Sequence record: OQ703102.1
DNA from: Escherichia phage vB_EcoP-R1
Length of the DNA: 40,875 nt
Direction: 5' to 3' (one strand)
The notes under the pieces were generated by a model that saw only the letters and a list, made by a program, of their open reading frames with translations, searched no databases and had not been told where the DNA came from. The position numbers and the translations under genes were made by a program. Shown one piece after another: positions 4,883 to 39,681 of the stretch. Within the stretch, counting starts at the first letter, position 1, and every line of letters starts with the position of its first letter.

Positions 4883-4905
4883 CTTAACTATCACTATAGG
4901 GACTA
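4883..4905 (+). promoter_or_regulatory. Phage RNAP promoter (phi13-like)
   Basis: CCTTAACTATCACTATAGGGACT; predicted +1 G at 4900; same 23-bp family recurs 10 times in the window. Confidence 0.8.
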
Positions 4906-4933
4906 TAGGCCATTAAGGTTATAAGGAGACTTT

Positions 4934-5404
4934 ATGTATATTCGCAAGGCTACGGAACCGGATGTCCACTACTTTCTGTGGCATCTTTCAGCAGATGATG
5001 TTAATGAGTGCAAAGCAAACTACGGGTCAACCGTTGGTCTCTCTGAAAGACTGCTTAAGCACCTATCTCCGTCATCTGTGGTTTTAACGAACGGTGTAGG
5101 CGAAGTGTTTGCCTATGGTGGAAACCAAGGGGATAACGTATGGTTCTTGACTTCAGGTCTGGTCAACAAGCTGAGACCTAAAGAGAAGCGAGAGTTCATA
5201 AAGCGTATCTCTGAGTACAGGGACTTAATGTTAGACCAATACGGGACCATCTGGAACTACGTGTGGTCAGGCAATAAGTCTCACATTAAATTCTTGAAGT
5301 TGATTGGGGCTAAGTTCCATGATGATTGGACTATCAGCCCGGTAACTGGTGAGCGTTTTCAATTATTCACTATCTCTAAGGAGGACGTATGTGTGAACCC
5401 GTAA
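4934..5404 (+). CDS. 13: Internal virion protein A (gp13 position)
   Basis: 156 aa ORF directly after the phi13-like promoter and before gp14; assigned by position and size. Confidence 0.6.
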   Translation: MYIRKATEPDVHYFLWHLSADDVNECKANYGSTVGLSERLLKHLSPSSVVLTNGVGEVFAYGGNQGDNVWFLTSGLVNKLRPKEKREFIKRISEYRDLMLDQYGTIWNYVWSGNKSHIKFLKLIGAKFHDDWTISPVTGERFQLFTISKEDVCVNP

Positions 5405-5976
5405 GTATCGGTCTAGGAATCATGGCTGTAGCCGGGGCCACTATGTCCGCATCCCAACAGGCCAAGGCAGAAGGTGCAGCAATTGACGCTCAGAACCGAC
5501 AGGCTCAGGAAATGGTTAAGCAGATGAACTACTCTGACGCCAACCTGAAGATGCAGGAGCGAGACCTGAAGGAGCAGCAGATGGCTGAACTGACAGAGAC
5601 CACTCTAAACGGTATCCGCAATCAGGGGATGGTCCGAGCTGCAGTGGCTGAGTCAGGTCTGGAAGGTAACTCTATGGACAGGATTGAACGTCAGGTCGAA
5701 GGAGATACAGTCAAGGAGCGAGCAGGGATTACCGAAAGTTACAACCGCGACTATGCGGCTATCTTCGGGAACCGTATCGCCAACATTGAGAACACCAAGT
5801 CTGCTATCCGTGGTCAAGGTAAAATCATCAAGACCAGTCCACTGGCCCATGCACTTAATGTTGCTAACGCCGGGATGCAAGGTTACGCTGCTGGTGAATC
5901 AATGTCTGGGTCATCCAGCTCTGGCGGTTCTGCACCAATTAGGGCTGCTAAAGGCACACCTACAGGTCATAGCTAA
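5389..5976 (+). CDS. 14: Internal virion protein B (gp14 homolog)
   Basis: 195 aa; MCEPVSIGLGIM...SMDRIERQVEGD...NRDYAAIFGN...GTPTGHS resembles T7 gp14 (196 aa); RBS AAGGAGGA. Confidence 0.8.
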   Translation: MCEPVSIGLGIMAVAGATMSASQQAKAEGAAIDAQNRQAQEMVKQMNYSDANLKMQERDLKEQQMAELTETTLNGIRNQGMVRAAVAESGLEGNSMDRIERQVEGDTVKERAGITESYNRDYAAIFGNRIANIENTKSAIRGQGKIIKTSPLAHALNVANAGMQGYAAGESMSGSSSSGGSAPIRAAKGTPTGHS

Positions 5977-5987
5977 GAGGAGGACTA

Positions 5988-8270
5988 ATGGCTAGTAATA
6001 TTGAATCAGCTCTGGCTAATCGGACTATGGGTCGCGGCAGAGCGCCGGGTAAAACTATCGCCGTAAACTATCAAGCAGCCAGCGTTCAGGCTCCGACTGG
6101 TGACTCCGGTCTGGCTCGTGCGTTAACCAACTTCGTTGAGTCTGGGACTGGATTGTACAAGCAGTTCAAGGACGATGAAAAGACACGGGCCGACGAGAGG
6201 TCTAACGAGATTATCCGTAAGCTGACACCTCAGCAAAGACGTGAGGCTATCCAGAACGGCACATTGCTGTATCAGGATGACCCTTACGCTATGGAAGCAC
6301 TTCGAGTCAAGACTGGTCGTAATGCTGCCTTTGCTGTAGACGACGAGATTAACGTTAAGATTCAGAACGGTGAGTTCCGTACACGTCAGGACATGGAAGA
6401 GTATCGCCACCAGCGACTTCAGGATGCCGCTAAGTCCTATGCTGAAGAGGCAGGTATTAACCCTACCGACGAGTTCTTCCAGCGTGGCTTCAACGATAAC
6501 ATCACGGACAGAAACATCGCTATCTATGGGTCTTTCAATAAGTATTTCAGCAAGCAGTCTGAAGAGACAGCAATGTTGAACACTCGTATTGAGATGAACT
6601 CATTCCTGAACGATGGCGACCTGATGCGTTCACCTGAGTCTGGCAAGACATTCATGGCCTACCTTCGGGATGGATTGACGACTGCTGCTATACCTTCGGA
6701 CCAGAGAGCACGGGAGGTCATTACCCAGACGGTCCGTGACGCAATCCAGAAGTCCGGCGGCTCAAACTTCCTACAGCAAGTACGAGGCGAGAGAATCACC
6801 CTTAACGGTGTAGATGCTACAGTCGAAGAGATTGTAGGACCGGATGTCTTCAACGCTGCTATTGTTGAGGCACAAGGTACTGAGTATAAACTGGTGGCTA
6901 AGTATCAGGAAGACTTGTCGTTAGGCGTTCAGTCTGCGATTCTTCAGGATGACCCAACCATCGGTCTGGCCCAGATTCAGAAACTCAAGGAGCAGAACAA
7001 CCTGCTTCAGCCGGGTGAAGAACTAACGCCTCAGCGTCAGATGCTTATTAACGCCGAAGCCAGCTTACTGGAAGCGGTCAAGCGTAAGTCTGCTGAACAG
7101 GCAAAGGAGAACACTAAGTTAATCCAGACCCAGAACAAGCAACTGGTCATCGACCAAGTTTATCAGCGACGTCTGGCTGGGGACAACGTGTCCACCAACT
7201 ATGAGGACCTTCCGGTCTCTGAAGCTACAGGAGAGTTCAAGCGTTCAGACATGAACAACTATGCGTCTGCTAAGCTACAGCAGATTGACCAGATGGACAT
7301 CCCTGAGGCTGCTAAGGACGCACAGAAGGTTGCATTATTAAGAGCTGACACTAACAACGGTCCGTTCCGTAATGCCTTCCAGACGCTGACTCAGGACGCT
7401 GCTGGTGAGTGGCAAGCTGCGGTCATCCGTGGGAAGTACGACCCAGACAAGATGCAACGCTTCGAATCTCTTCGTCGTGCCTACACTCAGGACCCTTCAA
7501 GTTTTTCTGCTCTGTATCCTGACCAAGCTCAGTTGTTCTCTACGTTCGACCAGATGGACAAGATGGGTCTGGACCCTCAGACGATGATTGAAGCTGATAA
7601 GCAAGCTGCAAGTCAAAGCCGTGAGATGCGCATGGAGTCAGACAAGGCGTGGCAGGAGTTGAAGAATGACTCTCGGAATAAGGACCTTTCGCGTCTTCCT
7701 ACGTCTCTGGACGCAAGTGCTCGTAAGGTCTGGGACTCATGGTACTATCGTACAGGTAACGCTGACGCTGCAACTCAGCAGACTCAACGCTGGCTGAATG
7801 AGAACACCGTAACGTTCCAGTCTGAAGGTTCTGACGGTAAGTCCATCGGCATGGTGTCCAAGCACCAGCTTATGGTCGGGGATAACCCAGAGTCGTGGCA
7901 GGTGGGTCGAGACATTATCGACACCGCTCGTAAGCAGCTCATTAAGGCCAACCCTTGGGTAGTGAACTCTCAGTTGTCCGTTGTTGAACAGAACGGCTCT
8001 ATCTTCCTCCAAGACGCTACAGGGACTATTCGTATTCGGTACGATAAAGAACTTGTAGGTAAACTCTACCGCGAACAACAGCAGAAGGCACAAGATGCCG
8101 CATACGCTCAGGCAGAACGTGACGCTAACAAGCGAGCGCGTATCGTCGGGACTAAAGCTGCTGGTGACAAACGTCGAGCTGACCGAGAGGCCAACATCGA
8201 GAAGCGCGGTGGGATGTACAATGACGTCTCACTGGAGGGTATCGCAAAAGTACTAATTGGTAAGGAGTAA
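5988..8270 (+). CDS. 15: Internal virion protein C (gp15 homolog)
   Basis: 760 aa (T7 gp15 747 aa); conserved position between gp14 and gp16; strong RBS. Confidence 0.8.
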   Translation: MASNIESALANRTMGRGRAPGKTIAVNYQAASVQAPTGDSGLARALTNFVESGTGLYKQFKDDEKTRADERSNEIIRKLTPQQRREAIQNGTLLYQDDPYAMEALRVKTGRNAAFAVDDEINVKIQNGEFRTRQDMEEYRHQRLQDAAKSYAEEAGINPTDEFFQRGFNDNITDRNIAIYGSFNKYFSKQSEETAMLNTRIEMNSFLNDGDLMRSPESGKTFMAYLRDGLTTAAIPSDQRAREVITQTVRDAIQKSGGSNFLQQVRGERITLNGVDATVEEIVGPDVFNAAIVEAQGTEYKLVAKYQEDLSLGVQSAILQDDPTIGLAQIQKLKEQNNLLQPGEELTPQRQMLINAEASLLEAVKRKSAEQAKENTKLIQTQNKQLVIDQVYQRRLAGDNVSTNYEDLPVSEATGEFKRSDMNNYASAKLQQIDQMDIPEAAKDAQKVALLRADTNNGPFRNAFQTLTQDAAGEWQAAVIRGKYDPDKMQRFESLRRAYTQDPSSFSALYPDQAQLFSTFDQMDKMGLDPQTMIEADKQAASQSREMRMESDKAWQELKNDSRNKDLSRLPTSLDASARKVWDSWYYRTGNADAATQQTQRWLNENTVTFQSEGSDGKSIGMVSKHQLMVGDNPESWQVGRDIIDTARKQLIKANPWVVNSQLSVVEQNGSIFLQDATGTIRIRYDKELVGKLYREQQQKAQDAAYAQAERDANKRARIVGTKAAGDKRRADREANIEKRGGMYNDVSLEGIAKVLIGKE

Positions 8271-8274
8271 CATA

Positions 8275-11200: not shown

Positions 11201-12162
11201 TAGATGCTGGACGTCAAGGCTTCCTGTCTGACATCGTGGAGCATAGCCTGACTGGTAGTAAGCGTAAGTTCAATGACCGCTGGCTTAAGACCGCTGGTAT
11301 CTCTGACGAGCAGTGGAAGGGCATTAAGTCCCTCATCCGTGAGTCAGTGACTCGTGGTCCAGACGGGAAGTACACCATCAAGGATAAGAAGGCGTTCAGT
11401 CAGGACCCAAGGGCTATGGACCTATGGCGTATGGGTGACACCATCGCTGACGAGACGTTACTCCGGCCTCATAAGCTGTCAAACATGGACGCCAAGGCTT
11501 ACGGTCCTCTCGCTAAGACTGTCCTTCAGTTTAAGAACTTCGTCATCAAGTCCATCAATGGACGTACCATGCGAACCTTCTATAACGCCACGAAGAACAA
11601 CCGAGCGATGGACGCTGCACTGTCTACTGTGATGTCTATGGGTCTGGCTGGTATCTACTACATTGCTCAGGCGCACGTCAAGGCTTACGCTATGCAGGAC
11701 GGTCGAGACCGAGATTATCTCAAGCAAGCTCTGGACCCAACGATGATTGGCTATGCGGCCCTGTCCCGTAGTTCACATCTGGGTGGCCCATTTGGTGTCG
11801 CTAACATTCTAGGTGGCATCGCTGGGTATGAGGACACTAAGATGCTCCGTTCGTCTATCCTCCCGCGTTCACCTACAGAGAAACCCGAACGTGCCATCTC
11901 ATATGGTGCGGCTACAAGTGACCCTGTGATGAATGTCGTTGGCAACTTCTTGGAGCAGGTCCCGGCTTTCGGCTATGCTGCTAACGTTGGCGCTTCGGCA
12001 TACAACTTGGCTGGCTACCTCAAGGCTGATACTCGTGTCAACGAGCGTGACTACATGACCGGGATGTATAATACGTTCCGTGAACTGGTTCCGAACGACC
12101 CGATTACTCAGAAGTTGCTACTGGGAACGTTTGAGGAGCAAGGTATCCACATCAAGGACTAA
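8275..12162 (+). CDS. 16: Internal virion protein D (gp16 homolog) with a divergent N-terminal domain
   Basis: About 1295 aa from ATG 8275 (RBS AAGGAG at 8262; track start 8257 is a TTG). Central and C-terminal regions parallel T7 gp16 (e.g. GPATRLEARETARN, SPTGMQSGASGK, GTYVPHVY, KAYGISH, NSFLEARNLFDSD, RVNGDIAIM, RSPFTKVLNGTTNYLLDA, VPNDPITQKLL). Confidence 0.85.
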   Translation: MATRGIRNNNPGNIRVSKDQWEGMTGDDGAFVTFDSPESGVRALGKNLLSYGRRGYDSIEKIINRWAPPNENDTKAYIDSVVAATGIPATQSLDLSNPDTLSALAQAISFHETGSRYDPEVYQKGVARALNGISPKTPPVSANVFDALTEGLKAKPKVALGENLPTAAGLNIEGQAPEAPNESFGEMFYKSTGETMQEREDRSTWFGFGAATEAEVKNSMVGVAIRAGQTEDSLDVIGDVFNPTRWNNHKWTREELDQIRNAGVLPQYYGVITGGSPQNLTELINLALENQKLDQEKAKAGTGAQLAAGVIGAGVDPLTYVPIAGQVGKGGKLVNKMFTVAAQSGALAGVSEMARTSVAGGDAHVAEAILGGALFGGGMTAIADGLGRALGRNTNEFAGPATRLEARETARNVDGQDLSRLPIQEGEPTFSHQGVKFADVPNEPGSVRLEDGSILIGENPLNPKTRQVFDEVIEPERAAAGVNLGGLTEIGLKLLRSENPEIRGVAADLVRSPTGMQSGASGKIGTTASDVFERLRAVDHRFYNDIDDAVTEALKDPYFQTAFWRDSGAFRQDIYQRVSMAIEDGSGNLKAELTPGELKVYDLLKNQFDAKREMMENPAMFGRPDAQSIFPGSRFKGTYVPHVYSNQMKELYIKELGSPEALQEAIKKSWLTSYASRPEVKKRVDEALLEADPTLTPEGLAAAVDKYANDKAYGISHTEQFERSSVMEENINGLVGLENNSFLEARNLFDSDMSIVLPNGQTFSVNNLREWDMDKIVPAYNRRVNGDIAIMAGTGKTTKDMKDLVETMMNKAGDDGKLKGEVSTLRDTLKILTGRARRDGADDAAFATVMRTMTDLSFFAKNAYMGVQNLTEIGGMLARGNVRAMLHGVPIFRDLAFRNKKVGASEIKDLHNVIFGKELDDSIRPSKQDVIDRLRSYSDLGRGAATALGTAKYYTGELAVRSPFTKVLNGTTNYLLDAGRQGFLSDIVEHSLTGSKRKFNDRWLKTAGISDEQWKGIKSLIRESVTRGPDGKYTIKDKKAFSQDPRAMDLWRMGDTIADETLLRPHKLSNMDAKAYGPLAKTVLQFKNFVIKSINGRTMRTFYNATKNNRAMDAALSTVMSMGLAGIYYIAQAHVKAYAMQDGRDRDYLKQALDPTMIGYAALSRSSHLGGPFGVANILGGIAGYEDTKMLRSSILPRSPTEKPERAISYGAATSDPVMNVVGNFLEQVPAFGYAANVGASAYNLAGYLKADTRVNERDYMTGMYNTFRELVPNDPITQKLLLGTFEEQGIHIKD

Positions 12163-12180
12163 ACTATCACTATAGGAAAC
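12158..12180 (+). promoter_or_regulatory. Phage RNAP promoter (phi17-like)
   Basis: ACTAAACTATCACTATAGGAAAC overlapping the gene 16 stop; +1 G at 12175. Confidence 0.8.
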
Positions 12181-12226: not shown

Positions 12227-14758
12227 ATGTCCACGATTACACAATTCCCTTCAGGAAACACTCAGTACAGGATTGAGTTCGACTACCTAGCCAGAACGTT
12301 TGTTGTTGTTACGCTGGTGAATAGCTCTAACCCTACCCTGAACCGTGTACTGGAAGTTGGTCGAGATTACCGATTCCTTAACCCAACGATGATTGAGATG
12401 TTGGTTGACCAATCAGGTTTCGACATCGTTCGTATTCACCGTCAGACTGGAACTGACTTAGTGGTAGACTTCAGGAATGGCTCAGTGTTGACAGCTAGTG
12501 ACCTGACCAATTCAGAGCTTCAGGCTATCCATATTGCAGAAGAAGGTCGAGACCAAACGGTTGACTTAGCGAAGGAATATGCCGATGCTGCTGGTAGCTC
12601 TGCTGGCAACGCTAAGGATAGCGAGGACGAAGCACGCCGAATCGCTGCGAGTATCAGGGAAGCTGGTCTAATTGGCTATATTACCCGTCGCTCCTTCGAG
12701 AAAGGCTACAACGTTACAACATGGAGCGAGGTCCTGCTATGGGAAGAGGATGGTGATTATTACCGCTGGGATGGTACGCTTCCAAAGAACGTTCCTGCTG
12801 GTTCAACTCCTGAAACTTCCGGTGGGATTGGATTAGGTTCGTGGGTTAGTGTTGGTGATGCTGCTTTAAGAAGTCAGATTTCAAACCCGGAAGGGGCAAT
12901 ACTCTACCCGGAATTGCAGATGGCAAGATGGCGTGATGATGGTGATGTTCGAGGCTGGGGTGCTAAAGGGGATGGTGTAACAGATAGTACGGAGAATATA
13001 GCTGCTTCACTAAATTCTCAAAAAGCTGTCGTAGCATCAGAAGGTGTATTCTCTAGTTCTGGTATTAATAGTAATTACTGTAACTTAGACGGCAGAGGCA
13101 GTGGTGTACTAAGTCACCGTTCCAGTACAGGTAACTACTTAGTATTTAACAATCCACGTACAGGTCGCTTAAGTAATATTACGGTAGAAAGTAATAAGGC
13201 GACGGATACCACTCAGGGACAGCAGGTATCTCTTGCTGGTGGCAGTGATGTTACGGTAAGTGACGTTAACTTCTCAAACGTTAAAGGTACTGGTTTCAGT
13301 TTAATCGCATACCCTAATGATGCGCCACCTGATGGGCTTATGATTAAAGGCATTCGAGGTAGCTATTCCGGCTATGCCACTAATAAGGCGGCTGGATGCG
13401 TACTTGCTGACTCCTCAGTTAACTCCCTCATAGATAACGTCATTGCTAAGAACTACCCTCAGTTCGGAGCTGTAGAGCTGAAAGGTACAGCCAGTTACAA
13501 CATAGTTAGTAATGTTATAGGGACAGATTGCCAGCATGTAACCTACAACGGTACTGAAGGGTCAATAGCTCCTTCTAATAACCTTATCAAGGGGGTAGTT
13601 GCTAATAATCCTAAGTATGCAGCGGTTGTTGCAGGCAAAGGTAGTACGAACTTAATATCAGACGTGCTCGTAGATTACTCAACCTCTGATGCTAGGCAGG
13701 CTCATGGTGCTACAGTAGAAGGTTCTGATAACGTCATAAATAATGTGCTTATGACAGGGTGTGATGGTACTAACTCTTTAGGGCAAGCTCAAACTGCTAC
13801 AATTGCTCGCTTTATAGATACAGCTAATAACAACTATGCGTCTGTATTTCCTAGCTACAGTGCTACAGGTGTTATTACTTTCGAATCAGGTTCTACCCGT
13901 AACTTCGTAGAGGTAAAGCATCCGGGAAGGAGAAACGACCTTCTCAGTGCTACTGGTACTATTAGCGGTGCAGATACTATTGACGGCACTAATAATAGCA
14001 ACGTAGTGCACGCCCCTGCATTAGGGCAGTACATAGGCAGTATGTCCGGTAGGTTCGAATGGCGGATTAAGTCCATGTCACTTCCATCAGGGGTTCTTAC
14101 CTCTGCGGATAAGTACAGGATGCTTGCCGATGAGGCTGTGTCATTAGCTGTAGGCGGAGGTACTTCTTCTCAAGTACGCCTGTTCACTTCTGACGGCACT
14201 TATCGGAATATATCACTTACTAGGGGTAACGTGCGTCTTCCTACCAGTAGCACAGGTTATTTGCAGTTAGGTTCTAATGCAATGACACCAGATAGTACTA
14301 ATACATACGCATTAGGTTCCGCAAGTCGAGCATGGTCTGGCGGTTTTACTCAATCAGCATTCACTGTTGTCTCAGATGCTAGGGATAAAACAGAGCCTCT
14401 TAATATCTCAGATGCTTTACTGGATGCTTGGTCTGAAGTTGACTTTGTGCAGTTTCAGTACTTGGACCGAATTGAGGAGAAGGGTGCAGACTCAGCTAGA
14501 TGGCACTTCGGCATCATCGCTCAGCGAGCTAAGGAGGCCTTCGAACGTCACGGTATAGATGCACATCGCTATGGCTTCCTGTGCTTCGACAGTTGGGATG
14601 ATGTATACGAGGAAGATGCCAATGGCTCTCGTAAACTGATTACACCAGCAGGTTCCCGCTACGGTATTCGTTACGAGGAAGTACTGATATTAGAGGCTGC
14701 GTTGATGCGGCGTACTATTAAGCGTATGCAGGAAGCATTAGCTGTTATGTCTAAGTGA
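12227..14758 (+). CDS. 17: Tailspike/tail fiber: T7 gp17-like N-terminal adaptor, pectate-lyase-type beta-helix (putative polysaccharide depolymerase), C-terminal intramolecular chaperone (peptidase S74-like)
   Basis: 843 aa. N-terminal about 150 aa resembles the gp17 tail-attachment domain; GAKGDGVTD motif at aa 245-253 (nt 12959-12985) is the hallmark of pectate-lyase-3 type tailspikes; C-terminal about 128 aa (from SDARDK at nt 14372; ...WHFGIIAQRAKEAF...) resembles the auto-cleaved chaperone domain of endosialidase-type tailspikes. Confidence 0.85.
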   Translation: MSTITQFPSGNTQYRIEFDYLARTFVVVTLVNSSNPTLNRVLEVGRDYRFLNPTMIEMLVDQSGFDIVRIHRQTGTDLVVDFRNGSVLTASDLTNSELQAIHIAEEGRDQTVDLAKEYADAAGSSAGNAKDSEDEARRIAASIREAGLIGYITRRSFEKGYNVTTWSEVLLWEEDGDYYRWDGTLPKNVPAGSTPETSGGIGLGSWVSVGDAALRSQISNPEGAILYPELQMARWRDDGDVRGWGAKGDGVTDSTENIAASLNSQKAVVASEGVFSSSGINSNYCNLDGRGSGVLSHRSSTGNYLVFNNPRTGRLSNITVESNKATDTTQGQQVSLAGGSDVTVSDVNFSNVKGTGFSLIAYPNDAPPDGLMIKGIRGSYSGYATNKAAGCVLADSSVNSLIDNVIAKNYPQFGAVELKGTASYNIVSNVIGTDCQHVTYNGTEGSIAPSNNLIKGVVANNPKYAAVVAGKGSTNLISDVLVDYSTSDARQAHGATVEGSDNVINNVLMTGCDGTNSLGQAQTATIARFIDTANNNYASVFPSYSATGVITFESGSTRNFVEVKHPGRRNDLLSATGTISGADTIDGTNNSNVVHAPALGQYIGSMSGRFEWRIKSMSLPSGVLTSADKYRMLADEAVSLAVGGGTSSQVRLFTSDGTYRNISLTRGNVRLPTSSTGYLQLGSNAMTPDSTNTYALGSASRAWSGGFTQSAFTVVSDARDKTEPLNISDALLDAWSEVDFVQFQYLDRIEEKGADSARWHFGIIAQRAKEAFERHGIDAHRYGFLCFDSWDDVYEEDANGSRKLITPAGSRYGIRYEEVLILEAALMRRTIKRMQEALAVMSK

Positions 14759-15057: not shown

Positions 15058-15317
15058 CGCAGATGGACTTAGAGAAGTTCCTCTTAATGCTAGATACTGA
15101 ACGTGCTAGACTCATGCTGCAAGACCTGCGGGATGACTCTAAGCGTTCACCTCAGCTTTACAACGCCATTGAGAAGCTACTGGCTCGTCACAACTTTGTG
15201 TTAAGCAAGGTGTCTGTGGACGAGAAGACGCTGGCTGATATGGAGGCCCTGAACGCAGAGTACGATAAGGTGCTTTCAGCGACTGAGGATAATGACACCG
15301 GGTATGGTGTTCAATAA
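15054..15317 (+). CDS. 18: Terminase small subunit (gp18 position)
   Basis: 87 aa (T7 gp18 89 aa) between holin and Rz; overlapping start/stop (ATGA). Confidence 0.7.
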   Translation: MTQMDLEKFLLMLDTERARLMLQDLRDDSKRSPQLYNAIEKLLARHNFVLSKVSVDEKTLADMEALNAEYDKVLSATEDNDTGYGVQ

Positions 15318-15321
15318 GTGT

Positions 15322-15366
15322 TAGACTCAAGGTCATTACTATGTGTAGTGGCCTTTATGGTTAACA
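15322..15366 (+). promoter_or_regulatory. RNase III-type processing hairpin (R18.5-like)
   Basis: TTAGACTCAAGGTCAT...GTGGCCTTTATGGTTAA; one of three near-identical copies (also 24159 and 31550); resembles the conserved GTGGCCTTTATGATT element of T7 RNase III sites. Confidence 0.5.
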
Positions 15367-15418
15367 CTAACTAGTGGAGGAGACTCTACGTGAAATCTGA
15401 TAAACCGGGAGGGCAACT

Positions 15419-17755: not shown

Positions 17756-17778
17756 ACTTAACTATCACTATAGGGAAG
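17756..17778 (+). promoter_or_regulatory. Phage RNAP promoter (phiOR-like, near the right genome end)
   Basis: GACTTAACTATCACTATAGGGAA; +1 G at 17773. Confidence 0.8.
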
Positions 17779-18355: not shown

Positions 18356-18550
18356 TCTCACAGTTCAAGAACCTCAAGTCTCCCCATAGGCCCTCTTTCA
18401 GTCCAGACCAAAGGCCCTACCCCAGTCTATCATAAGGTTAGACCGATGGTCAAGACGTTAGGTCAACGATAGGTCTAGGCTATGGCTTAGGGAAGGACGA
18501 TAGGTAGGGACTATGGGTCTGTCTCTGAGTCTCTATCTGTATAGTGATAT
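18356..18550 (+). repeat. Genome terminal repeat region (single copy at the joined right-end/left-end junction)
   Basis: TCTCACAGTTCAAGAACCTCAAGTCTCCCCATAGG... closely resembles the first bases of the T7 left end (TCTCACAGTGTACGGACCTAAAGT...); the stretch ...GTCTCTGAGTCTCTATCTGT near 18520-18540 resembles the end of the T7 terminal repeat. Boundaries approximate. Confidence 0.5.
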
Positions 18551-18571
18551 AGTATAACATTACGTCCTACA

Positions 18572-18660
18572 CCTACAGTCTGACTAACCTACAGTCTGAC
18601 TAACCTACAGTATCAACCATAAGACACCAACACCTACAGTCAAAGACCTACAGCTAATAG
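18572..18660 (+). repeat. Short direct repeats built on CCTACAG (including a 16-bp tandem CCTACAGTCTGACTAA x2)
   Basis: Read directly; analogous in position to the CCTAAAG-type repeats next to the T7 terminal repeat. Confidence 0.6.
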
Positions 18661-19121: not shown

Positions 19122-19376
19122 ATGGACACTATGAAACACTTAAGCACAATCACTAATCACAATGAAGTATTCGTGAACACTAAAGGTTATGCGTGGATTC
19201 AGCTTAAAGAGATGACAGGAGCGCGTCACCGTGTGGTAGTGCGCAGGGTATCAAGCAAGCCGTTCAGCAACTACAGTATAGACACTGTGCGTATAGACAA
19301 CGATACCTACCTGATAGACTCACAGATAACCGTGAGTCCTACAGCGAGCGCCTCAGCTCCTTATTTCGCTAACTGA
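19122..19376 (+). CDS. Hypothetical early protein upstream of ocr
   Basis: 84 aa ORF (alternative start ATG 19131); bracketed by two copies of the leader repeat; no recognisable motif. Confidence 0.5.
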   Translation: MDTMKHLSTITNHNEVFVNTKGYAWIQLKEMTGARHRVVVRRVSSKPFSNYSIDTVRIDNDTYLIDSQITVSPTASASAPYFAN

Positions 19377-19463: not shown

Positions 19464-19967
19464 ATGGAACGCAACGCTAACGCATACTATGAGCTGCTGG
19501 CTGCAACCGTTGAGGCATTTATCGAGCGTATTCAGTACGACCACCTGACTAAAGATGACGACTACAGCGATGCGCTGCATGAGGTCGTAGACGGTCAGGT
19601 CCCGCTCTATTACCACGAGATTTTCACGGTGATGGCTGCTGATGGTATAGACCACGAGTTCGAAGACTCTGGGCTGATGCCTGAAACCAAGGACGTAACG
19701 CGTATCCTACAAGCTCGCATCTATGAGGCACTTTATAACGACGTGTCTAATAGCTTGGATGTAGTCTGGTTTGAGGATGAAGAGGCAGACGAAGAGGATG
19801 AATATTGGGTAGTTGACGCTAAAACAGGCGCAATAATTGTGCAATCTGTAGCTCTTGAGGTCGCTACTGCATGTGCCGAGGTCAACTATGCGGCAGGTCG
19901 CCACCTGAAGGTGGAAGACATCAATGATAACGTAGTGTTCGACCCTGCGGCTGAGGACTGCGAGTGA
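19464..19967 (+). CDS. 0.3: Ocr-like anti-restriction DNA mimic (gp0.3 homolog) with a C-terminal extension of about 50 aa
   Basis: 167 aa; ...[54 protein letters not shown]... parallels T7 Ocr (...[46 protein letters not shown]...); acidic run [12 protein letters not shown], then extra non-acidic sequence absent from T7 Ocr (117 aa). Confidence 0.85.
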
Positions 19968-20487: not shown

Positions 20488-20813
20488 TGAACAAGTCATA
20501 CGGGATTAATCTGGTACACTCTATGGACGCAGAAATGAACATGTTAAGCCTACTGGCTACCGGGTATCGTCACGGAACATCAAGTCACACCGCACGTCAA
20601 CAGCAGGAGCGGGACCGTGTACTACAGGCGCGACTCCGGGCAGAGGGCCATAAGTCCGAACTGATGTGTCTGGCGTATGGTGGACGACCAATCACCGACG
20701 ATGGTAAACTTTTAGTCTCAGGCTGGAAGGCGATAGACCAACGGTCAACCATCAAGCACACGACTCACGGTGACTTCAGTCATCTTCACGCTAACCCACT
20801 GATATGCAAGTAA
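20487..20813 (+). CDS. Hypothetical early protein occupying the position of T7 gene 0.7 (no kinase)
   Basis: 108 aa, no kinase motifs; T7 gp0.7 is 359 aa. Confidence 0.45.
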   Translation: MNKSYGINLVHSMDAEMNMLSLLATGYRHGTSSHTARQQQERDRVLQARLRAEGHKSELMCLAYGGRPITDDGKLLVSGWKAIDQRSTIKHTTHGDFSHLHANPLICK

Positions 20814-20818
20814 TTATG

Positions 20819-20841
20819 ACTTAACTATCACTATAGGACTC
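20819..20841 (+). promoter_or_regulatory. Phage RNAP promoter immediately upstream of the RNAP gene
   Basis: GACTTAACTATCACTATAGGACT; +1 G at 20836; followed by tandem repeats CAAGTGAAAGAC (20857 and 20881). Confidence 0.75.
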
Positions 20842-20910
20842 AAGGTCTAAGACTCCAAGTGAAAGACCAAAGAGACTCTAAGTGAAAGACTAATAACAAG
20901 GACTTTAAGT

Positions 20911-24138: not shown

Positions 24139-24161
24139 CCTAAACTATCACTATAGGATTA
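24139..24161 (+). promoter_or_regulatory. Phage RNAP promoter (phi1.1-like)
   Basis: ACCTAAACTATCACTATAGGATT; +1 G at 24156. Confidence 0.8.
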
Positions 24162-24206
24162 GACTCAAGGTCATGACTCAAAGTCGTGGCCTTCATGATT
24201 AACCCT
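24159..24206 (+). promoter_or_regulatory. RNase III-type processing hairpin (R1.1-like)
   Basis: TTAGACTCAAGGTCATGACTCAAAGTCGTGGCCTTCATGATTAACC; near-identical to the copies at 15322 and 31550. Confidence 0.5.
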
Positions 24207-25727: not shown

Positions 25728-25738
25728 CTAAACGTCAA

Positions 25739-25769
25739 CCCAGTGGTCTTCGGACTGCTGGGTTTCTTT
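25739..25769 (+). terminator. Intrinsic terminator after ligase (TE-like early terminator)
   Basis: 10-bp stem CCCAGTGGTC / GACTGCTGGG (two G-U pairs), loop TTCG, then TTTCTTT; same position as T7 TE. Confidence 0.6.
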
Positions 25770-25809: not shown

Positions 25810-25832
25810 CCTAAGCTATCACTATAGGACAA
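25810..25832 (+). promoter_or_regulatory. Phage RNAP promoter (phi1.5/1.6-like)
   Basis: CCTAAGCTATCACTATAGGACAA; +1 G at 25827. Confidence 0.75.
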
Positions 25833-27080: not shown

Positions 27081-27235
27081 CTGAGGTTGAGAAGAAGTAC
27101 ATCGTGGAGCTTGAGGGACGCGTTCAGTCCTTCGAGGTTCCGTTGTACGCAAAGTCTCTTGAAGAGGCTACCCTGAAGTCCCAAGAGTATGAGGACGCTG
27201 GTTTTGTGGTCGGTCGGATTCGTCCTGAGGCCTAA
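27077..27235 (+). CDS. 2: Host RNA polymerase inhibitor (gp2 homolog)
   Basis: 52 aa [52 protein letters not shown]; resembles T7 gp2 (...[34 protein letters not shown]); below the track cutoff. Confidence 0.7.
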
Positions 27236-27253
27236 ACTATCACTGTAGGACAG
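27231..27253 (+). promoter_or_regulatory. Phage RNAP promoter variant (phi2.5-like), G at -3
   Basis: CCTAAACTATCACTGTAGGACAG; one mismatch to the family core (TATA to TGTA). Confidence 0.6.
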
Positions 27254-29385: not shown

Positions 29386-29601
29386 ATGATTAAACTTATC
29401 GAATTTCTCGGTCGTCTGGTGGTGCGTGGTTATCGTCGTGCTGCGGTTATGGAACGAAAGGTAGAAAAGAAGACTGCTGACAGTGCGGCTGATGCAGCTG
29501 CTCTGGCTGACAAGCTGACCATCGCGTCACTGGAAGCTGGCATGAAGGCACGTCAAGCTGACACCAAAGCTGACCAGTTGGCTAAGTTCTTCAAAGCCTA
29601 A
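29386..29601 (+). CDS. Hypothetical small protein (gene 3.8 position, not HNH-like)
   Basis: 71 aa Ala/Lys-rich, predicted helical; assigned by position. Confidence 0.45.
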   Translation: MIKLIEFLGRLVVRGYRRAAVMERKVEKKTADSAADAAALADKLTIASLEAGMKARQADTKADQLAKFFKA

Positions 29602-29619
29602 ACTATCACCTTAGGGATG
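29597..29619 (+). promoter_or_regulatory. Phage RNAP promoter variant (phi4-like), two substitutions at -4/-3
   Basis: GCCTAAACTATCACCTTAGGGAT; upstream half conserved, TATA box changed to CTTA. Confidence 0.5.
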
Positions 29620-31546: not shown

Positions 31547-31549
31547 GTC

Positions 31550-31614: not shown

Positions 31615-32046
31615 ATGAGGACTTGTAGTAGATGTGGCTCTACAAAGGAGTCCACTGAGTTCAGGAAGACAAATGGGTGGTGCATATCCTGTGTTCGTGA
31701 GGATAATAGGTCGCGATATCATCGAAACAAAGGTACAGAGGCCGGTGAGGCGCATCGCCTATCTGCCCGTAAGTCTTGGCTTAAGAAAGCCTATGGTCTC
31801 ACACTTGAGGAATATGACACTATGTTCGATAGTCAAAAGGGCAGATGCGCTATATGCTCAGACATTATCTTCAAGCATGGGTCTATTGAGAGTAAGAATA
31901 ATGTAGCCCACGTTGACCATTGCCATGACTCAGGTATTGTTAGGGGATTGCTATGTGGTACATGTAATAGCGCACTTGGTAAGTTCGGTGACAAGGTAGC
32001 CGTGCTTAGGGCTGCTATAACGTACTTGGAGAAATATAATGTTTAA
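31615..32046 (+). CDS. HNH endonuclease, endonuclease VII-type (putative homing endonuclease)
   Basis: 143 aa; Cys-rich N-terminus (CSRCGS...CISC) plus CAICSD...HVDHCHDSGIVRGLLCGTCNSALG, the typical endonuclease-VII/HNH zinc-binding core. Confidence 0.8.
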   Translation: MRTCSRCGSTKESTEFRKTNGWCISCVREDNRSRYHRNKGTEAGEAHRLSARKSWLKKAYGLTLEEYDTMFDSQKGRCAICSDIIFKHGSIESKNNVAHVDHCHDSGIVRGLLCGTCNSALGKFGDKVAVLRAAITYLEKYNV

Positions 32047-34210
32047 TCTCAACTCATTCTATGGCACAGATATAGAGACTGACGGTCTACTAGACACTGT
32101 GTCACAGTTCCATTGTGGTGTTATCATTAACGCTGGAACTCAGGCTACTGAGAAATATGGTGTTGCCCCTATGACTGGGCTGACAGGTGGATTCAAAGAG
32201 TACATAGACCGCATAGAATCTATTATGGCATCCACTGACGGTATGCTGGTTCTGCACAATGGTGTGAACTATGATATACCAGCCTTGAAAATACTGAAGA
32301 AGAAATACTTTGGTAAGAACCTAAATGTGAATAAGGGTCGAATTATTGATACCTTGGTACTTGGTCGCTTGATGTATCCAAACATTAAGTTCTCAGACAT
32401 GGGCGCGGTGAAAGCTGGTCGTCTGCCACCTAAGATGATGGGACGCCAGTCTCTTGAGGCTTGGGGCTATCGTCTCGGTGAGATGAAAGGTGAGTACAAA
32501 CACGATTACGTTGCCAAGTGCAAGGCTGAAGGTATCGAATATAAGGCTGGGGACGAATGGTTGTTCCCGTCTCAGGAGATGCTGGACTATAACGTTCAAG
32601 ACGTTGTGGTCACACTGGCGTTGTTCAAGAAGTTCCTGACTGACAAGTATTACTTCCAGTCTGAACAGTTTGCTTTCGACCAGATTTATGCGTTGCGTCT
32701 GGAACATGATGCTGCGTGGACCTGTGCGAAGATGGAGCGTAACGGCTATCCGATGAACACCGAGATGGTCGAAGGCTTATATCGTGAACTCACCGTCAAA
32801 CGTGCAGAGTTGTTGGACAAGCTGCGTTCGACTTTCGGTAGCTGGTATGCACCAAAGGGAGGCAAGGAGTTCTTCAAGCACCCACGGACAGGCAAGGACC
32901 TTCCGAAGTATCCGCGAGTCGTGTATCCTAGGGTCGGGTCAGTATTCAAGAAGCCGAAGAACAAAGCTCAACGCTTAGGTCTGGAGCCTTGCGAGTTCGA
33001 CTCACGAGACACGATGGAAGGAGCACCGTTCACGCCAATCACTTACGTTGAGTTTAATCCGGGAAGCGGAGACCACTTAGCGAAAGTCTTGATGGAGCGT
33101 GGTTGGGAGCCTGTGGACTTCACTGACACTGGGAAACCTGTAGTAGATGACGAGACGTTAGAACACGTTAAGCTACCAGACGCAGAGGCTCAGGCTTGCG
33201 TAGAGCTGGTCCGTGAGTATCTGGTAGTCCAGAAGCGCATCGGTCAGGCGGCTGAAGGTAAGAACGCATGGTTGAAACTTGTAGGTCCAGACGGACGTAT
33301 GCACGGTTCAATCAACCCATGCGGTGCAGTAACAGGACGTGCGACTCATAGTTCACCAAACATGGCTCAGGTCCCTGCTAACGGTGCTCCGTATGGTGAG
33401 ATTTGCCGTGGTGCTTTCGGTGCAGCTTGGAACAAGACGGATGGTAAGCCAGACCCTTGGATTCAAGTGGGTGTGGATGCTTCAGGTCTTGAGCTTCGTT
33501 GTCTGGGGAACCGAGCAGCTCCGTTTGATGGTGGTGCCTATGCGAAGACTGTGGTCGAAGGTGACATCCACTGGGCCAACGCAGTAAACGCTGGTTTAGC
33601 ACCTAACGTCCCACGCGATAAATCGAGCCACGACCATGATGCTTTCCGTAACAACGCTAAGACGTTCATCTATGCGTTCCTGTATGGTGCAGGGGCCGCT
33701 AAGATTGGACTGATAGTCGGCGGTGGTAAGAAGGAAGGTTCAGCTCTCATGAAGAAATTCATTGAGGGTACACCAGCCATCAAAGACCTCAGGGAAGCTG
33801 TGAGTAATACGTTAATCTCAGACTCTAAGTGGGTAGATGGTGAGAACATCGTTAAGTGGAAACGCCGTTGGCTGCGTGGACTTGACGGTCGCCGTATCCA
33901 CATCCGGTCGCCACACTCAGCACTGAACGCCTTACTTCAAGGTGACGGTGCGGTAGTCTGTAAGCACTGGATGGTACTGACGGAGAAGAAACTTGAGGAA
34001 GCTGGCTACGGTAATGGCTGGGATGGTGACTTTGCGCTAATGGCTTGGATTCACGACGAATTGCAGATTGCGTGTCGTACTCAGGAGATTGCCGAAGAAG
34101 TCGTCCGTATTGCACAAGAAGCAATGCGTGAGGTAGGACGTTTTTATAACTTCAAGTGTGATCTTGATACGGAGGGTAAGATTGGACCAACGTGGAAAGA
34201 GTGTCACTGA
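32039..34210 (+). CDS. 5: DNA polymerase, family A (gp5 homolog)
   Basis: 723 aa; ...SQFHCGVII, LEAWGYRLGEMKGEYK, DYNVQDVVVT, HPRTGK.LPKYPR, FKKPKNKAQR, GAVTGRATHS.PN.AQ.P, DASGLELRCLG, KTFIYAFLYGAG, KRRWL.GLDGR..H.RSPH.ALN.LLQ, GWDGDFA.MAW.HDE.Q parallel T7 gp5. Confidence 0.97.
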   Translation: MFNLNSFYGTDIETDGLLDTVSQFHCGVIINAGTQATEKYGVAPMTGLTGGFKEYIDRIESIMASTDGMLVLHNGVNYDIPALKILKKKYFGKNLNVNKGRIIDTLVLGRLMYPNIKFSDMGAVKAGRLPPKMMGRQSLEAWGYRLGEMKGEYKHDYVAKCKAEGIEYKAGDEWLFPSQEMLDYNVQDVVVTLALFKKFLTDKYYFQSEQFAFDQIYALRLEHDAAWTCAKMERNGYPMNTEMVEGLYRELTVKRAELLDKLRSTFGSWYAPKGGKEFFKHPRTGKDLPKYPRVVYPRVGSVFKKPKNKAQRLGLEPCEFDSRDTMEGAPFTPITYVEFNPGSGDHLAKVLMERGWEPVDFTDTGKPVVDDETLEHVKLPDAEAQACVELVREYLVVQKRIGQAAEGKNAWLKLVGPDGRMHGSINPCGAVTGRATHSSPNMAQVPANGAPYGEICRGAFGAAWNKTDGKPDPWIQVGVDASGLELRCLGNRAAPFDGGAYAKTVVEGDIHWANAVNAGLAPNVPRDKSSHDHDAFRNNAKTFIYAFLYGAGAAKIGLIVGGGKKEGSALMKKFIEGTPAIKDLREAVSNTLISDSKWVDGENIVKWKRRWLRGLDGRRIHIRSPHSALNALLQGDGAVVCKHWMVLTEKKLEEAGYGNGWDGDFALMAWIHDELQIACRTQEIAEEVVRIAQEAMREVGRFYNFKCDLDTEGKIGPTWKECH

Positions 34211-34241
34211 CCCTCGAACCAAGACCTTGCGCTTCCACACA

Positions 34242-34535
34242 ATGCCTACTGGATGTATCGTCTGCGTGTCCCACAAGAGGAACCAAGATGGATACTTCCG
34301 GTATTCTATGGGAAGCTACAGGAAGGGCAACAAGTTCGCCTTCATGTTTCACAGATGGGTGTGGGAACAGAAGCGCGGACCTATACCGGATGGCTATGAG
34401 ATAGACCATTTGTGTTTGAATCGTGGGTGCTGTAACGTAGAACATCTACAATGTATTCCAAAGCGTGATCACGTCATCAAGACGAACCGTGAGCGCAAAC
34501 TTATTAAGAAGGAGAAGACTAATGGCTATTACTAA
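34242..34535 (+). CDS. HNH endonuclease (gene 5.3 position)
   Basis: 97 aa from ATG 34242 (track ORF 34158..34535 starts inside DNAP); ...GYFRYSMGSYRKGNKFAFMFHRWVWEQKRGPIPDGYEIDHLCLNRGCCNVEHLQCIPKRDH...N is a classic HNH core. Confidence 0.75.
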   Translation: MPTGCIVCVSHKRNQDGYFRYSMGSYRKGNKFAFMFHRWVWEQKRGPIPDGYEIDHLCLNRGCCNVEHLQCIPKRDHVIKTNRERKLIKKEKTNGYY

Positions 34536-36443: not shown

Positions 36444-36466
36444 ACTAAACTATCACTATAGGGACT
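36444..36466 (+). promoter_or_regulatory. Phage RNAP promoter (phi6.5-like)
   Basis: CACTAAACTATCACTATAGGGAC; +1 G at 36461; followed by an inverted-repeat leader (GACTTTAGGACC...GACTTTAGTC). Confidence 0.8.
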
Positions 36467-36527
36467 TTAGGACCTAAGATATGACTATAAGATAGACTTT
36501 AGTCTTAACTTAAAGAGGAGATTCAAG

Positions 36528-36800: not shown

Positions 36801-36814
36801 CTGTAGGAGGGACT

Positions 36815-37039: not shown

Positions 37040-37043
37040 GACA

Positions 37044-37448
37044 ATGCTACCATATCTCAACTCACGCGAAGGTCGCCATATGTGCGCTTGTCGCCTCTGG
37101 GAAGACGGGCAGTCTAACTTCAAGTCATTCGAGGACTTCAAGGCTCATACTTACCGTATGGCTGACGAGTTCGACGGTGAAGAATACACAATCTACGATG
37201 CCTCAGGTCAACCAGTAGCGTATCTCTACATGCTGGCTACCGCATCTTGGCACCGACCGACTCCCGGTCTTGACCTTTCAATAGTCGCTATTCGTCGTGA
37301 CTCGCAGTCCTCCCGCAAGGTTCTTGAGACTGTCAGACACATCATAGACGAAGAGTGCAAGCGTTGGGGTCTTGGCTGGTATTCTCGTGTCAAGCATGTT
37401 TCCGGGTCGGTAGACATCGTAACAACTAAGGAGATTAATCGTGGGTAA
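37044..37448 (+). CDS. gp7-position protein
   Basis: 134 aa (T7 gp7 133 aa); assigned by position and size. Confidence 0.5.
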   Translation: MLPYLNSREGRHMCACRLWEDGQSNFKSFEDFKAHTYRMADEFDGEEYTIYDASGQPVAYLYMLATASWHRPTPGLDLSIVAIRRDSQSSRKVLETVRHIIDEECKRWGLGWYSRVKHVSGSVDIVTTKEINRG

Positions 37449-37689
37449 ATCAATCAGTAAGGCCTTCAAGAAAGTGGTGAAAAGTACGTTAGGGACCGTT
37501 GGTCTTGGCTCTGATGACGCGCCTAAGGTTGTTGAGGCTAAGACCCCAGCAGCACCAGTGGAAGTACCGAACGACAAAGTGGAGGATGTGGATACTGAAG
37601 CAACCGCATCTGATGAGAAGAAAGTGAAGCGTTCCGGTAAGCGTAGCCTTCAGGTCTCTCGCACCTCTGGTGGCGGTATTTCTATATGA
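37441..37689 (+). CDS. 7.3: gp7.3-like tail/virion protein
   Basis: 82 aa, Lys/Ala/Val-rich, ends ...RSLQVSRTSGGGISI (T7 gp7.3 ends similarly as I recall); GTG start. Confidence 0.65.
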   Translation: MGKSISKAFKKVVKSTLGTVGLGSDDAPKVVEAKTPAAPVEVPNDKVEDVDTEATASDEKKVKRSGKRSLQVSRTSGGGISI

Positions 37690-38102
37690 CAGGGTGCATC
37701 GAGTGGAAGTGGGCCAAATCCTCAGCAGGATACGGGCAGAAGCGTATAGACGGTAAGTTAGTGTATATGCACCGACTCGCTTACGCCGATGCACATGGGC
37801 CAATACCAGACGGAATGCTCGTCCGTCATAAGTGTGATAATCCAGCATGTTTTAACGTAAACCACTTAGAGTTAGGAACTCAGCGTGATAACATGCAGGA
37901 CGCCTCAAAGCGTGGTCGAGTCAATAAAACCAAAATGGCTAGAGGTGAGGACCAAGGGTTATCGGTTTTAACAGAAGACCTTGTTCGAGAAATCCGCAAG
38001 TCAACAGTAGGTTGTACAACACTGGCTCGTGAGCTGGGCGTTAGCAAGTCTACAGTTTTGCGGGTTCGCCAAGGTAAAACATGGAGGCACGTAGATGGCT
38101 GA
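37686..38102 (+). CDS. HNH endonuclease with C-terminal helix-turn-helix (gene 7.7 position)
   Basis: 138 aa; ...GYGQKRIDGKLVYMHRLAYADAHGPIPDGMLVRHKCDNPACFNVNHLELGTQRDN... HNH core; C-terminal ...TLARELGVSKSTVLRVRQGKTW is HTH-like. Confidence 0.75.
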   Translation: MTGCIEWKWAKSSAGYGQKRIDGKLVYMHRLAYADAHGPIPDGMLVRHKCDNPACFNVNHLELGTQRDNMQDASKRGRVNKTKMARGEDQGLSVLTEDLVREIRKSTVGCTTLARELGVSKSTVLRVRQGKTWRHVDG

Positions 38103-39663
38103 ACGTGAAGGATTTGCCGCTGAAGGCGCGAAGTCAGTTTATGATAGGCTGAAGAACGGACGACAACCTTACGAGACCAGAGCACAGAACTGCGCTGCCG
38201 TGACCATACCGTCGCTATTTCCGAAGGAATCTGATAACTCCTCGACGGAATATTCAACTCCGTGGCAAGCTGTAGGTGCTCGCTGTTTGAACAACTTGGC
38301 TGCAAAGCTGATGTTGGCATTATTCCCTCAGTCACCGTGGATGCGACTGACAGTCTCCGAATATGAGGCCAAGACCTTGAGTCAGGACTCAGAGGCTGCT
38401 GCTCGTGTTGACGAAGGGCTGGCTATGGTCGAGCGTGTGTTGATGGCCTACATGGAGACCAACAGTTTCCGTGTGCCATTGTTCGAAGCTCTGAAGCAGC
38501 TTATCGTCTCCGGTAACTGTCTGCTTTACATTCCAGAGCCTGAACAGGGTACTTACAGTCCTATGCGAATGTACCGCTTAGTGTCATACGTTGTTCAACG
38601 TGATGCTTTCGGTAATATCTTGCAGATTGTGACTCTCGACAAGGTAGCGTTTAGTGCTCTACCGGAAGACGTGAAGTCACAACTCAACGCAGACGACTAT
38701 GAGCCTGACACAGAGCTGGAAGTTTATACGCACATCTACCGTCAAGACGACGAGTATCTACGTTATGAGGAAGTGGAAGGCATTGAGGTAGCAGGGACCG
38801 ATGGTTCCTACCCACTGACTGCATGTCCATACATCCCGGTACGAATGGTTCGACTGGATGGTGAAGACTATGGTCGTTCTTACTGCGAGGAGTATCTGGG
38901 TGACCTGAACTCGCTGGAGACGATTACAGAAGCTATCACCAAAATGGCTAAGGTAGCCTCCAAGGTGGTGGGCCTCGTTAACCCGAACGGTATCACGCAA
39001 CCTCGTCGGCTGAACAAGGCGGCTACAGGTGAGTTCGTTGCCGGTCGCGTTGAGGACATCAACTTCCTGCAACTGACTAAGGGTCAGGACTTTACGATTG
39101 CCAAGTCGGTGGCTGACGCTATCGAGCAACGTTTAGGCTGGGCCTTCCTTCTTAATAGTGCTGTTCAGCGCAACGCCGAGCGAGTCACTGCTGAAGAGAT
39201 TCGTTATGTTGCTGGCGAACTGGAGGCGACCTTAGGTGGCGTGTACTCAGTACAATCCCAAGAGCTTCAGTTACCTATCGTCCGTGTGCTGATGAACCAA
39301 CTTCAGTCTGCTGGCATGATTCCTGACCTTCCGAAAGAAGCGGTAGAGCCTACTGTCTCCACTGGTCTGGAAGCGTTAGGTCGTGGTCAGGACTTGGAGA
39401 AGCTAACTCAGGCGGTTAACATGATGACTGGTCTTCAGCCGCTATCTCAGGACCCGGACATCAACTTGCCGACCCTTAAGCTACGACTCCTGAACGCTCT
39501 GGGTATCGACACCGCCGGCCTTCTGCTGACTCAGGACGAGAAGATGCAACGTATTGCTGAACAATCCGCTCAAGGAGCTGTGGTCAACGGTGCGTCTGCT
39601 GCTGGTGCTAACATGGGTGCTGCTGTAGGTCAGGGAGCTGGTGAGGACATGGCTCAAGCCTAA
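38095..39663 (+). CDS. 8: Portal / head-to-tail connector protein (gp8 homolog)
   Basis: 522 aa (T7 gp8 536 aa); conserved position between 7.7 and scaffold. Confidence 0.93.
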   Translation: MAEREGFAAEGAKSVYDRLKNGRQPYETRAQNCAAVTIPSLFPKESDNSSTEYSTPWQAVGARCLNNLAAKLMLALFPQSPWMRLTVSEYEAKTLSQDSEAAARVDEGLAMVERVLMAYMETNSFRVPLFEALKQLIVSGNCLLYIPEPEQGTYSPMRMYRLVSYVVQRDAFGNILQIVTLDKVAFSALPEDVKSQLNADDYEPDTELEVYTHIYRQDDEYLRYEEVEGIEVAGTDGSYPLTACPYIPVRMVRLDGEDYGRSYCEEYLGDLNSLETITEAITKMAKVASKVVGLVNPNGITQPRRLNKAATGEFVAGRVEDINFLQLTKGQDFTIAKSVADAIEQRLGWAFLLNSAVQRNAERVTAEEIRYVAGELEATLGGVYSVQSQELQLPIVRVLMNQLQSAGMIPDLPKEAVEPTVSTGLEALGRGQDLEKLTQAVNMMTGLQPLSQDPDINLPTLKLRLLNALGIDTAGLLLTQDEKMQRIAEQSAQGAVVNGASAAGANMGAAVGQGAGEDMAQA

Positions 39664-39681
39664 ACTATCACTATAGGAACT
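39659..39681 (+). promoter_or_regulatory. Phage RNAP promoter (phi9-like)
   Basis: CCTAAACTATCACTATAGGAACT overlapping the portal stop; +1 G at 39676. Confidence 0.8.

Follow-up and report, generated by a model that had tools for sequence, protein, structure and literature searches.

Does the promoter family of Escherichia phage vB_EcoP-R1 define a new RNA polymerase (RNAP) specificity, or one that has already been described? The sequence record of this phage (OQ703102.1; 40,875 nucleotides, referred to here in its entirety as the window) contains ten copies of a promoter-like element of 23 base pairs together with a gene for a single-subunit RNAP, and the original prediction proposed that the two could be a new orthogonal RNAP/promoter pair. 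We find that the ten sites are, with high confidence, class II and class III promoters of a Kayfunavirus, read by the phage's own gene 1 RNAP, and that they belong to a specificity class that is already known. The consensus of the family is identical to the promoters of phages K1F and EcoDS1, and the specificity loop of the RNAP is identical to that of K1F. Identity to an already characterised phage RNAP promoter was the outcome that the original prediction had itself named as contradicting it, and because K1F supplies that identity the claim of novelty is refuted. The RNAP/promoter class has already been annotated, characterised and put to use.

We searched both strands of the window for TAAACTATCACTATAGGRA with up to three mismatches, using 100 dinucleotide-preserving shuffles as the control. 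Exactly ten matches were found, every one on the plus strand (starting at positions 4884, 12160, 17758, 20821, 24141, 25812, 27233, 29599, 36446 and 39661), and the 100 shuffles contained none. A position weight matrix constructed from the ten sites in a 23-base-pair frame holds 36.5 bits of information. When both strands were rescanned with this matrix, the ten sites scored 31.1–37.3 bits and no eleventh member was detected on either strand of the window, in agreement with the ten sites listed originally. The coordinates given for them, which mark position −17 of the 23-base-pair frame and thus lie two nucleotides upstream of the consensus as it had been quoted, are exact for nine sites, while the one placed at 4883 belongs at 4882. 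The best-scoring non-member is at 36473 (plus strand) with 15.9 bits, and all remaining positions score below 9 bits. We rejected 36473 as an additional promoter; it sits in the leader of phi6.5, has neither the conserved −11 to −7 block nor a GG start, and folding of this region is also not significant. Promoters of the T7 or T3 type are absent from the window at up to three mismatches, and a scan of the window against Rfam at gathering thresholds returned zero matches.

All ten sites precede a start codon by 34–186 nucleotides and lie on the same strand as all of the genes, and their order maps onto T7-type gene positions. The sequence CTATCAC is present in every site. The full core from −8 to +2, TCACTATAGG, is found in eight of the ten, and the two without it are the conserved variants phi2.5 and phi4 described below.

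One promoter (20819–20841, plus strand as are all of the following; ACTTAACTATCACTATAGGACTC) precedes gene 1, which encodes the RNAP itself. In the T7 register its initiating G (+1) is at 20836, leaving a leader of 75 nucleotides, and the site is letter-identical to the annotated EcoDS1 promoter at 2244–2266 and to the K1F site at 2476. A promoter is likewise annotated at this place in EcoDS1 and is present in K1F and Ro45lw, and its location before gene 1 implies positive autoregulation of that gene. T7 is not known to have a phage promoter directly before its RNAP gene. The next promoter (24139–24161; CCTAAACTATCACTATAGGATTA; +1 at 24156) precedes gene 1.1 and the ligase cluster and has its EcoDS1 counterpart at 6034–6056. 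It is directly followed by a potential RNase III-like hairpin (24156–24205). The phi1.6 promoter (25810–25832; CCTAAGCTATCACTATAGGACAA; +1 at 25827) is identical to EcoDS1 phi1.6 and to the K1F site at 7185. Further downstream are phi2.5 (27231–27253; CCTAAACTATCACTGTAGGACAG; +1 at 27248), phi4 (29597–29619; CCTAAACTATCACCTTAGGGATG; +1 at 29614), phi6.5 (36444–36466; ACTAAACTATCACTATAGGGACT; +1 at 36461) and phi9 (39659–39681; CCTAAACTATCACTATAGGAACT; +1 at 39676), the last of which overlaps the stop codon of gene 8; phi6.5 and phi9 have counterparts of the same names in EcoDS1. The remaining three, phi13 (4882–4904; CCTTAACTATCACTATAGGGACT; +1 at 4899), phi17 (12158–12180; ACTAAACTATCACTATAGGAAAC; +1 at 12175), which overlaps the end of gene 16, and phiOR (17756–17778; ACTTAACTATCACTATAGGGAAG; +1 at 17773), which is near the right genome end, are each identical to the EcoDS1 promoter of the same name.

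Substitutions in the TATA segment of the sites at 27231 and 29597 had been pointed out beforehand, and both are borne out: phi2.5 reads CTGTA (−3 A>G) and phi4 reads CCTTA (−4 T>C and −3 A>T). Substitutions between −4 and −1, in the TATA segment, act on initiation rather than on binding in T7, and the two variants are probably weaker promoters. The CTGTA variant is also present in EcoDS1, K1F and Ro45lw, and the CCTTA variant in EcoDS1 and K1F. Both are kept unchanged in K1F and EcoDS1, and in Ro45lw the phi2.5 variant is likewise preserved alongside a similar phi4 (CCTAA), which suggests that these class II promoters have been tuned and have not decayed. The pattern is already known and is not new.

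The cognate RNAP is encoded by gene 1 (20911–23592, plus strand), the reading frame originally assigned to it. The product is a K1F-type single-subunit enzyme of 893 amino acids that matches the Pfam families RNA_pol (E = 5e-105) and RPOL_N (E = 2e-15), and in an alignment all of the catalytic and active-site residues D537, K631, Y639, H784 and D812 (T7 numbering, as used throughout) are conserved. It is 99.9% identical to the RNAP of Enterobacteria phage IME177, 95.4% to that of K1F, 95.3% to that of EcoDS1 and 92.9% to that of Ro45lw. Identities to the enzymes of T7 (64.0%), T3 (63.6%), K11 (58.9%) and SP6 (32.2%) are much lower. A scan of phage records found at least 205 that encode an RNAP at least 90% identical to that of the window.

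The specificity loop, which is equivalent to T7 residues 739–770, is encoded at 23155–23250 (plus strand; YRKKDTTRLNLMFLGSFNLQPTVNKGTKKELD). Inspection of this loop had been proposed as a check on novelty, and we find that the equivalent of T7 residues 732–780 is 100% identical in the window, K1F and EcoDS1. Relative to T7, the loop carries Q744T, Q754S, R756N and I761V within the segment Q744–I761, and it has the K1F set of T744, R746, N748, S754, N756 and Q758. The window and K1F enzymes differ at 41 residues, 31 of which are located between T7 positions 464 and 663, and neither the specificity loop nor the intercalating hairpin contains any of the 41. In T7 RNAP, R746 contacts −7, Q758 contacts −8, R756 contacts the guanine at −9, and N748 contacts −10 and −11. 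The retention of R746 and Q758 would fit the unchanged C at −7 and T at −8, and R756N would fit the change from C to A at −9, by which the guanine contacted by R756 in T7 is lost.

The remainder of the genome points to the same group of phages. In a 6-kb region that includes the RNAP gene, the window shares 96% identity with Enterobacteria phage IME177, many Kayfunavirus genomes are at least 90% identical there, and the best matches of this region are Kayfunavirus records. Alignments to EcoDS1 and K1F extend over approximately 35 kb at 91–92% identity, and tblastn matched 49 of 53 EcoDS1 proteins in the window, nearly all in T7-type gene order. On the basis of these sequence comparisons, we assign the phage to Kayfunavirus as a K1F-like relative of T7 within the Studiervirinae. 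Among the IMG/VR matches listed, more than 120 stretches contain the 15-mer AACTATCACTATAGG, many of them from contigs of about 40 kb.

The K1F class has been studied for some time. Temme et al. (2012) grafted the K1F specificity loop (Q744–I761) into T7 RNAP and exchanged positions −12 to −7 of the T7 promoter for the K1F consensus, which gave a 17-fold inducible pair that was orthogonal to T7, T3 and N4-type pairs (PMC3458549), and the K1F loop was reused by Segall-Shapiro et al. (2014). Native K1F RNAP and the K1F promoter PK1F have been used for expression and targeted mutagenesis in Halomonas and E. coli, where the pair was orthogonal to the MmP1 and VP4 systems and crosstalk was low (PMC12218169). 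Takatsuki et al. (2025, JBC) purified Ro45lw RNAP, defined ACTTAACTATCACTATAGGGA as its minimal promoter, mapped initiation to the +1 G by sequencing, and measured the temperature, salt and end-homogeneity properties of the enzyme (PMC12272871). In addition, a 2025 covariation study includes a 'K1F cluster' among natural specificity classes and calls the orthogonality of the K1F loop graft to T7 and T3 limited (PMC11880802), and in a 2026 genome note the Kayfunavirus promoter is reported to be the repeat CTWAACTATCACTATAGG (PMC13298934). By analogy, RNAP from the window would be expected to initiate at the +1 G, as was seen for the 92.9%-identical Ro45lw enzyme on an identical promoter (PMC12272871), and its orthogonality to the T7 and T3 RNAPs may resemble that reported for the K1F loop graft (PMC3458549).

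The proposal that the promoters and RNAP constitute a new, uncharacterised specificity class and a new orthogonal tool draws on two genuine observations, namely that the −12 to −9 block differs from those of T7, T3, K11 and SP6, and that the RNAP is only 59–64% identical to the enzymes of T7, T3 and K11 and 32% identical to that of SP6. However, K1F, EcoDS1 and Ro45lw have identical promoters, the loop is that of K1F, at least 205 phage records hold an RNAP that is at least 90% identical, and characterisation of the class has been published (PMC3458549, PMC12218169, PMC12272871). We consider a new class to be scarcely credible. A more modest possibility is that the pair belongs to the K1F specificity class yet differs in its enzymology, for example in temperature optimum, 3'-end homogeneity or the ranking of promoter strengths, as a result of the 41 substitutions. 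The clustering of 31 of these within T7 positions 464–663 could be taken in its favour, as could the finding that the Ro45lw and T7 RNAPs differ in preferred temperature and in end homogeneity (PMC12272871). However, nothing indicates that differences within the genus alter behaviour, the promoter-contacting elements are unchanged, and the enzyme is 99.9% identical to that of IME177, a phage already deposited, and we therefore regard distinct enzymology as unlikely. It is improbable, too, that deliberately attenuated phi2.5 and phi4 promoters and positive feedback through the promoter before the RNAP gene make up a tuned, genus-specific transcription programme to which the 41 substitutions might add useful enzymology. 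Even if this were true, such a programme would still not be a new specificity class.

Some promoters of T7 double as replication origins or take part in packaging, and the site at 24139 and phiOR could carry extra roles of this kind. Another explanation is that the repeats serve recombination, packaging or replication, or arise by chance, rather than directing transcription. However, their core is the T7-group promoter core, they are confined to the coding strand and positioned before genes, the shuffled sequences yielded no match, and the same sequence is active as a promoter in vitro with Ro45lw RNAP. An explanation without transcription is thus extraordinarily improbable. The interpretation that we favour, in which the sites are Kayfunavirus promoters of the known K1F class, also has points that weigh against it. 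Transcription from the sites of the window is itself a conclusion carried over from the literature on related phages. The retention of N748 despite CT at −11 and −10, where T7 has GA, is left unexplained by the simple T7 contact code. The RNAP may show small kinetic differences from K1F RNAP, given the 41 changes outside the loop. Finally, the match between the window and the synthetic PK1F promoter of Temme et al., which reportedly reads TAATAACTATCACTATAGGGAGA, rests on the K1F genomic sites and on that reported sequence.

If the sites are Kayfunavirus promoters, homology to T7 predicts that host RNA polymerase would first transcribe the early region, including gene 1, from the left end (about position 18356). 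The phage RNAP would then bind each 23-base-pair promoter, with its specificity loop reading −12 to −7 (ACTATC) and an N-terminal loop reading the upstream sequence (A/C)CT(A/T)A. It would melt the TATA segment and start at the +1 G. Rightward transcription would proceed first through the genes of DNA metabolism, from the promoters before genes 1, 1.1, 1.6, 2.5 and 4, and then through the virion and packaging genes, from phi6.5, phi9, the missing phi10, phi13, phi17 and phiOR, with partial termination expected at the Tphi-like hairpin after gene 10.

The absence of phi10 is connected with the construction of the contig. The first 394 bases of the window are 99.7% identical to E. coli nikA, so that the non-phage start spans positions 1–395 and phage DNA begins at 396, within the leader of gene 10. 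At the other end, phage DNA continues until 40609 and is followed by non-phage sequence (40610–40875) that comprises a fragment of E. coli yehQ (about 40605–40847, 98.8% identity) and, as the final 32 bases, the Illumina adapter AGATCGGAAGAGCGTCGTGTAGGGAAAGAGTG. The nikA and yehQ fragments come from unlinked, distant positions in the E. coli chromosome. From these alignments, the contig is judged to be chimeric, with phage DNA assigned to 396–40609. Phage DNA stops 11–12 codons short of the end of gene 9, and the break corresponds to 96 base pairs of EcoDS1 (20782–20877) in which the final codons of gene 9 and phi10 (ACTAAACTATCACTATAGGGAGA) are located and the leader of gene 10 begins. We looked for phi10 upstream of gene 10 and it is absent from the window, because the contig breaks in this gap of about 96 base pairs; the absence is an assembly artefact rather than a true loss. 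The real phage thus very probably has eleven promoters, including phi10, the strongest late promoter, and the count of ten describes an incomplete family. The contig, being chimeric and without its strongest late promoter, needs repair before deposition or use.

The contig is also circularly permuted, with structural genes that wrap round its ends. Positions 18356–18534 represent one collapsed copy of a direct terminal repeat of about 178 base pairs, equivalent to EcoDS1 1–178 and 39075–39252. The window is therefore permuted across a concatemer junction, and the physical genome ends are at 18356–18534. Immediately inward of the terminal repeat at the left end are short near-tandem repeats (18560–18650; CCTACAGTCTGACTAA, CCTACAGT and similar sequences) that look like the short arrays beside the terminal repeats of T7-group phages.

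Two hairpins resemble terminators. An early terminator (TE)-like hairpin follows the ligase gene (25737–25764, plus strand) and consists of a 12-base-pair stem and a T-rich tail (−19.2 kcal/mol, z = −4.5). TE is annotated at the equivalent place in EcoDS1. A Tphi-like late terminator follows the capsid gene, gene 10 (1777–1814, plus strand), and consists of a 17-base-pair stem followed by GGGGTTTTTTG (−25.2 kcal/mol, z = −4.9), and a terminator is annotated at this position in both EcoDS1 and Ro45lw. Together with the promoters, these hairpins constitute the standard transcription layout of the T7 group. In addition, we identified two elements of about 52 nucleotides that are 83% identical to each other (15317–15368 and 24156–24205) and form long imperfect hairpins (z = −3.9 and −3.3, respectively). 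They are probably RNase III processing sites, because their positions match those of T7 R18.5 and R1.1.

Several other genes of the window deserve mention. Three small free-standing nuclease reading frames lie between core genes: one of the Endonuclease_7 family (31615–32046, E = 1e-24) and two of the HNH_3 family (34158–34535, E = 2e-18; 37686–38102, E = 1e-15). All three are likely homing endonucleases. EcoDS1 gp13.5, encoded at another genomic position, shares 43% identity with the product of the first. The gene 17 product (12227–14758, 843 amino acids) has only its N-terminal portion of about 317 amino acids in common with EcoDS1 gp17, at 71% identity, and contains a Tail_spike_N domain and a C-terminal Peptidase_S74 intramolecular chaperone, as in the K1F endosialidase. 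This receptor-binding module has been swapped and is the probable determinant of host range. In the gene 0.3 product (19464–19967), a DNA-mimic Ocr domain was recognised (E = 9e-29), and its 167 amino acids compare with 110 in the shorter EcoDS1 gp0.3. A reading frame of 84 amino acids (19122–19376) is located just upstream of gene 0.3.

Beyond correct annotation, the significance of these promoters is small. They belong to one more Kayfunavirus. The class was annotated in 2008 (EcoDS1), engineered in 2012, used for orthogonal expression and mutagenesis, and biochemically characterised in 2025. If the RNAP of the window were cloned as a "new" orthogonal part, the result would be a duplicate of K1F.

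Comparison with the classical systems reveals both a common architecture and a distinct recognition block. T7, T3 and K11, which belong to the Studiervirinae, and SP6, of the Molineuxvirinae, have the same 23-base-pair promoter architecture as the window, and the sequence from −7 to +1, CACTATAG, is common to the window, T7, K11 and SP6, whereas T3 departs from it in the TATA segment. The T at −8 is common to the window, T7 and T3. Among the RNAPs, the catalytic residues and R746 are common to all five, while Q758 is otherwise found only in T7 and T3. The window also resembles these systems in having a Tphi-type terminator and in the way its class II and class III promoters are laid out. In contrast, the −12 to −7 block reads ACTATC in the window, CGACTC in T7, ACCCTC in T3 and GGGCAC in K11. 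In the SP6 consensus this block is GGTGAC, although the one site found in the SP6 stretch that was examined reads CGTGAC. The specificity thus does differ from those of T7, T3, K11 and, presumably, SP6, as had been claimed, and the stated contrast at −12 to −9 between ACTA and the CGAC of T7 agrees with the T7 sequence. The block originally given for T3, AACC, was one register off; T3 reads ACCC (phi1.05, CATTAACCCTCACTAACGGGAGA), and K11 reads GGGC. The window differs further from these four systems in a less AT-rich upstream region (−17 to −13), in S754 and N756 of the loop, in 11 inserted residues that follow the AT-rich recognition loop, and in the phage promoter before gene 1.

Much closer likenesses are found within Kayfunavirus, where promoters precede genes 1, 1.1, 1.6, 2.5, 4, 6.5, 9, 10, 13 and 17 and an additional one is phiOR. 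Ten of these eleven positions are occupied in the window, in the same order. The minimal promoter of Ro45lw (also written 'Ro45Iw') is an exact match from −17 to +4 to the site at 17756 and has a single difference, at −17, from the site at 4882. However, the Ro45lw loop differs from that of the window by M750L and T765S, and Ro45lw has twelve sites, with one more promoter-like site ahead of gene 5 and with phi1 and phi4 variants that differ slightly. EcoDS1 (EU734172, GenBank 2008), the DNA of which is about 91% identical, has eleven annotated phage promoters. Ten of them match the sites of the window one for one and in the same order, and the phi10 region is the part lost from the window. Over 23 base pairs, eight are letter-identical and phi1.1 and phi9 are each one base off; the annotation of phi6.5 is shifted by two nucleotides. 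TE and Tphi are at the same places. K1F differs from the window in the 41 RNAP residues outside the recognition elements, in the C-terminal part of the tail spike and in homing-endonuclease content, and it has phi10, which the window is without only through the assembly gap. K1F carries the same eleven sites as the family described here, including CTGTA in phi2.5 and CCTTA in phi4, with the same core, the same ACTATC from −12 to −7 and the same gene order, in a genome that is about 92% identical in DNA.

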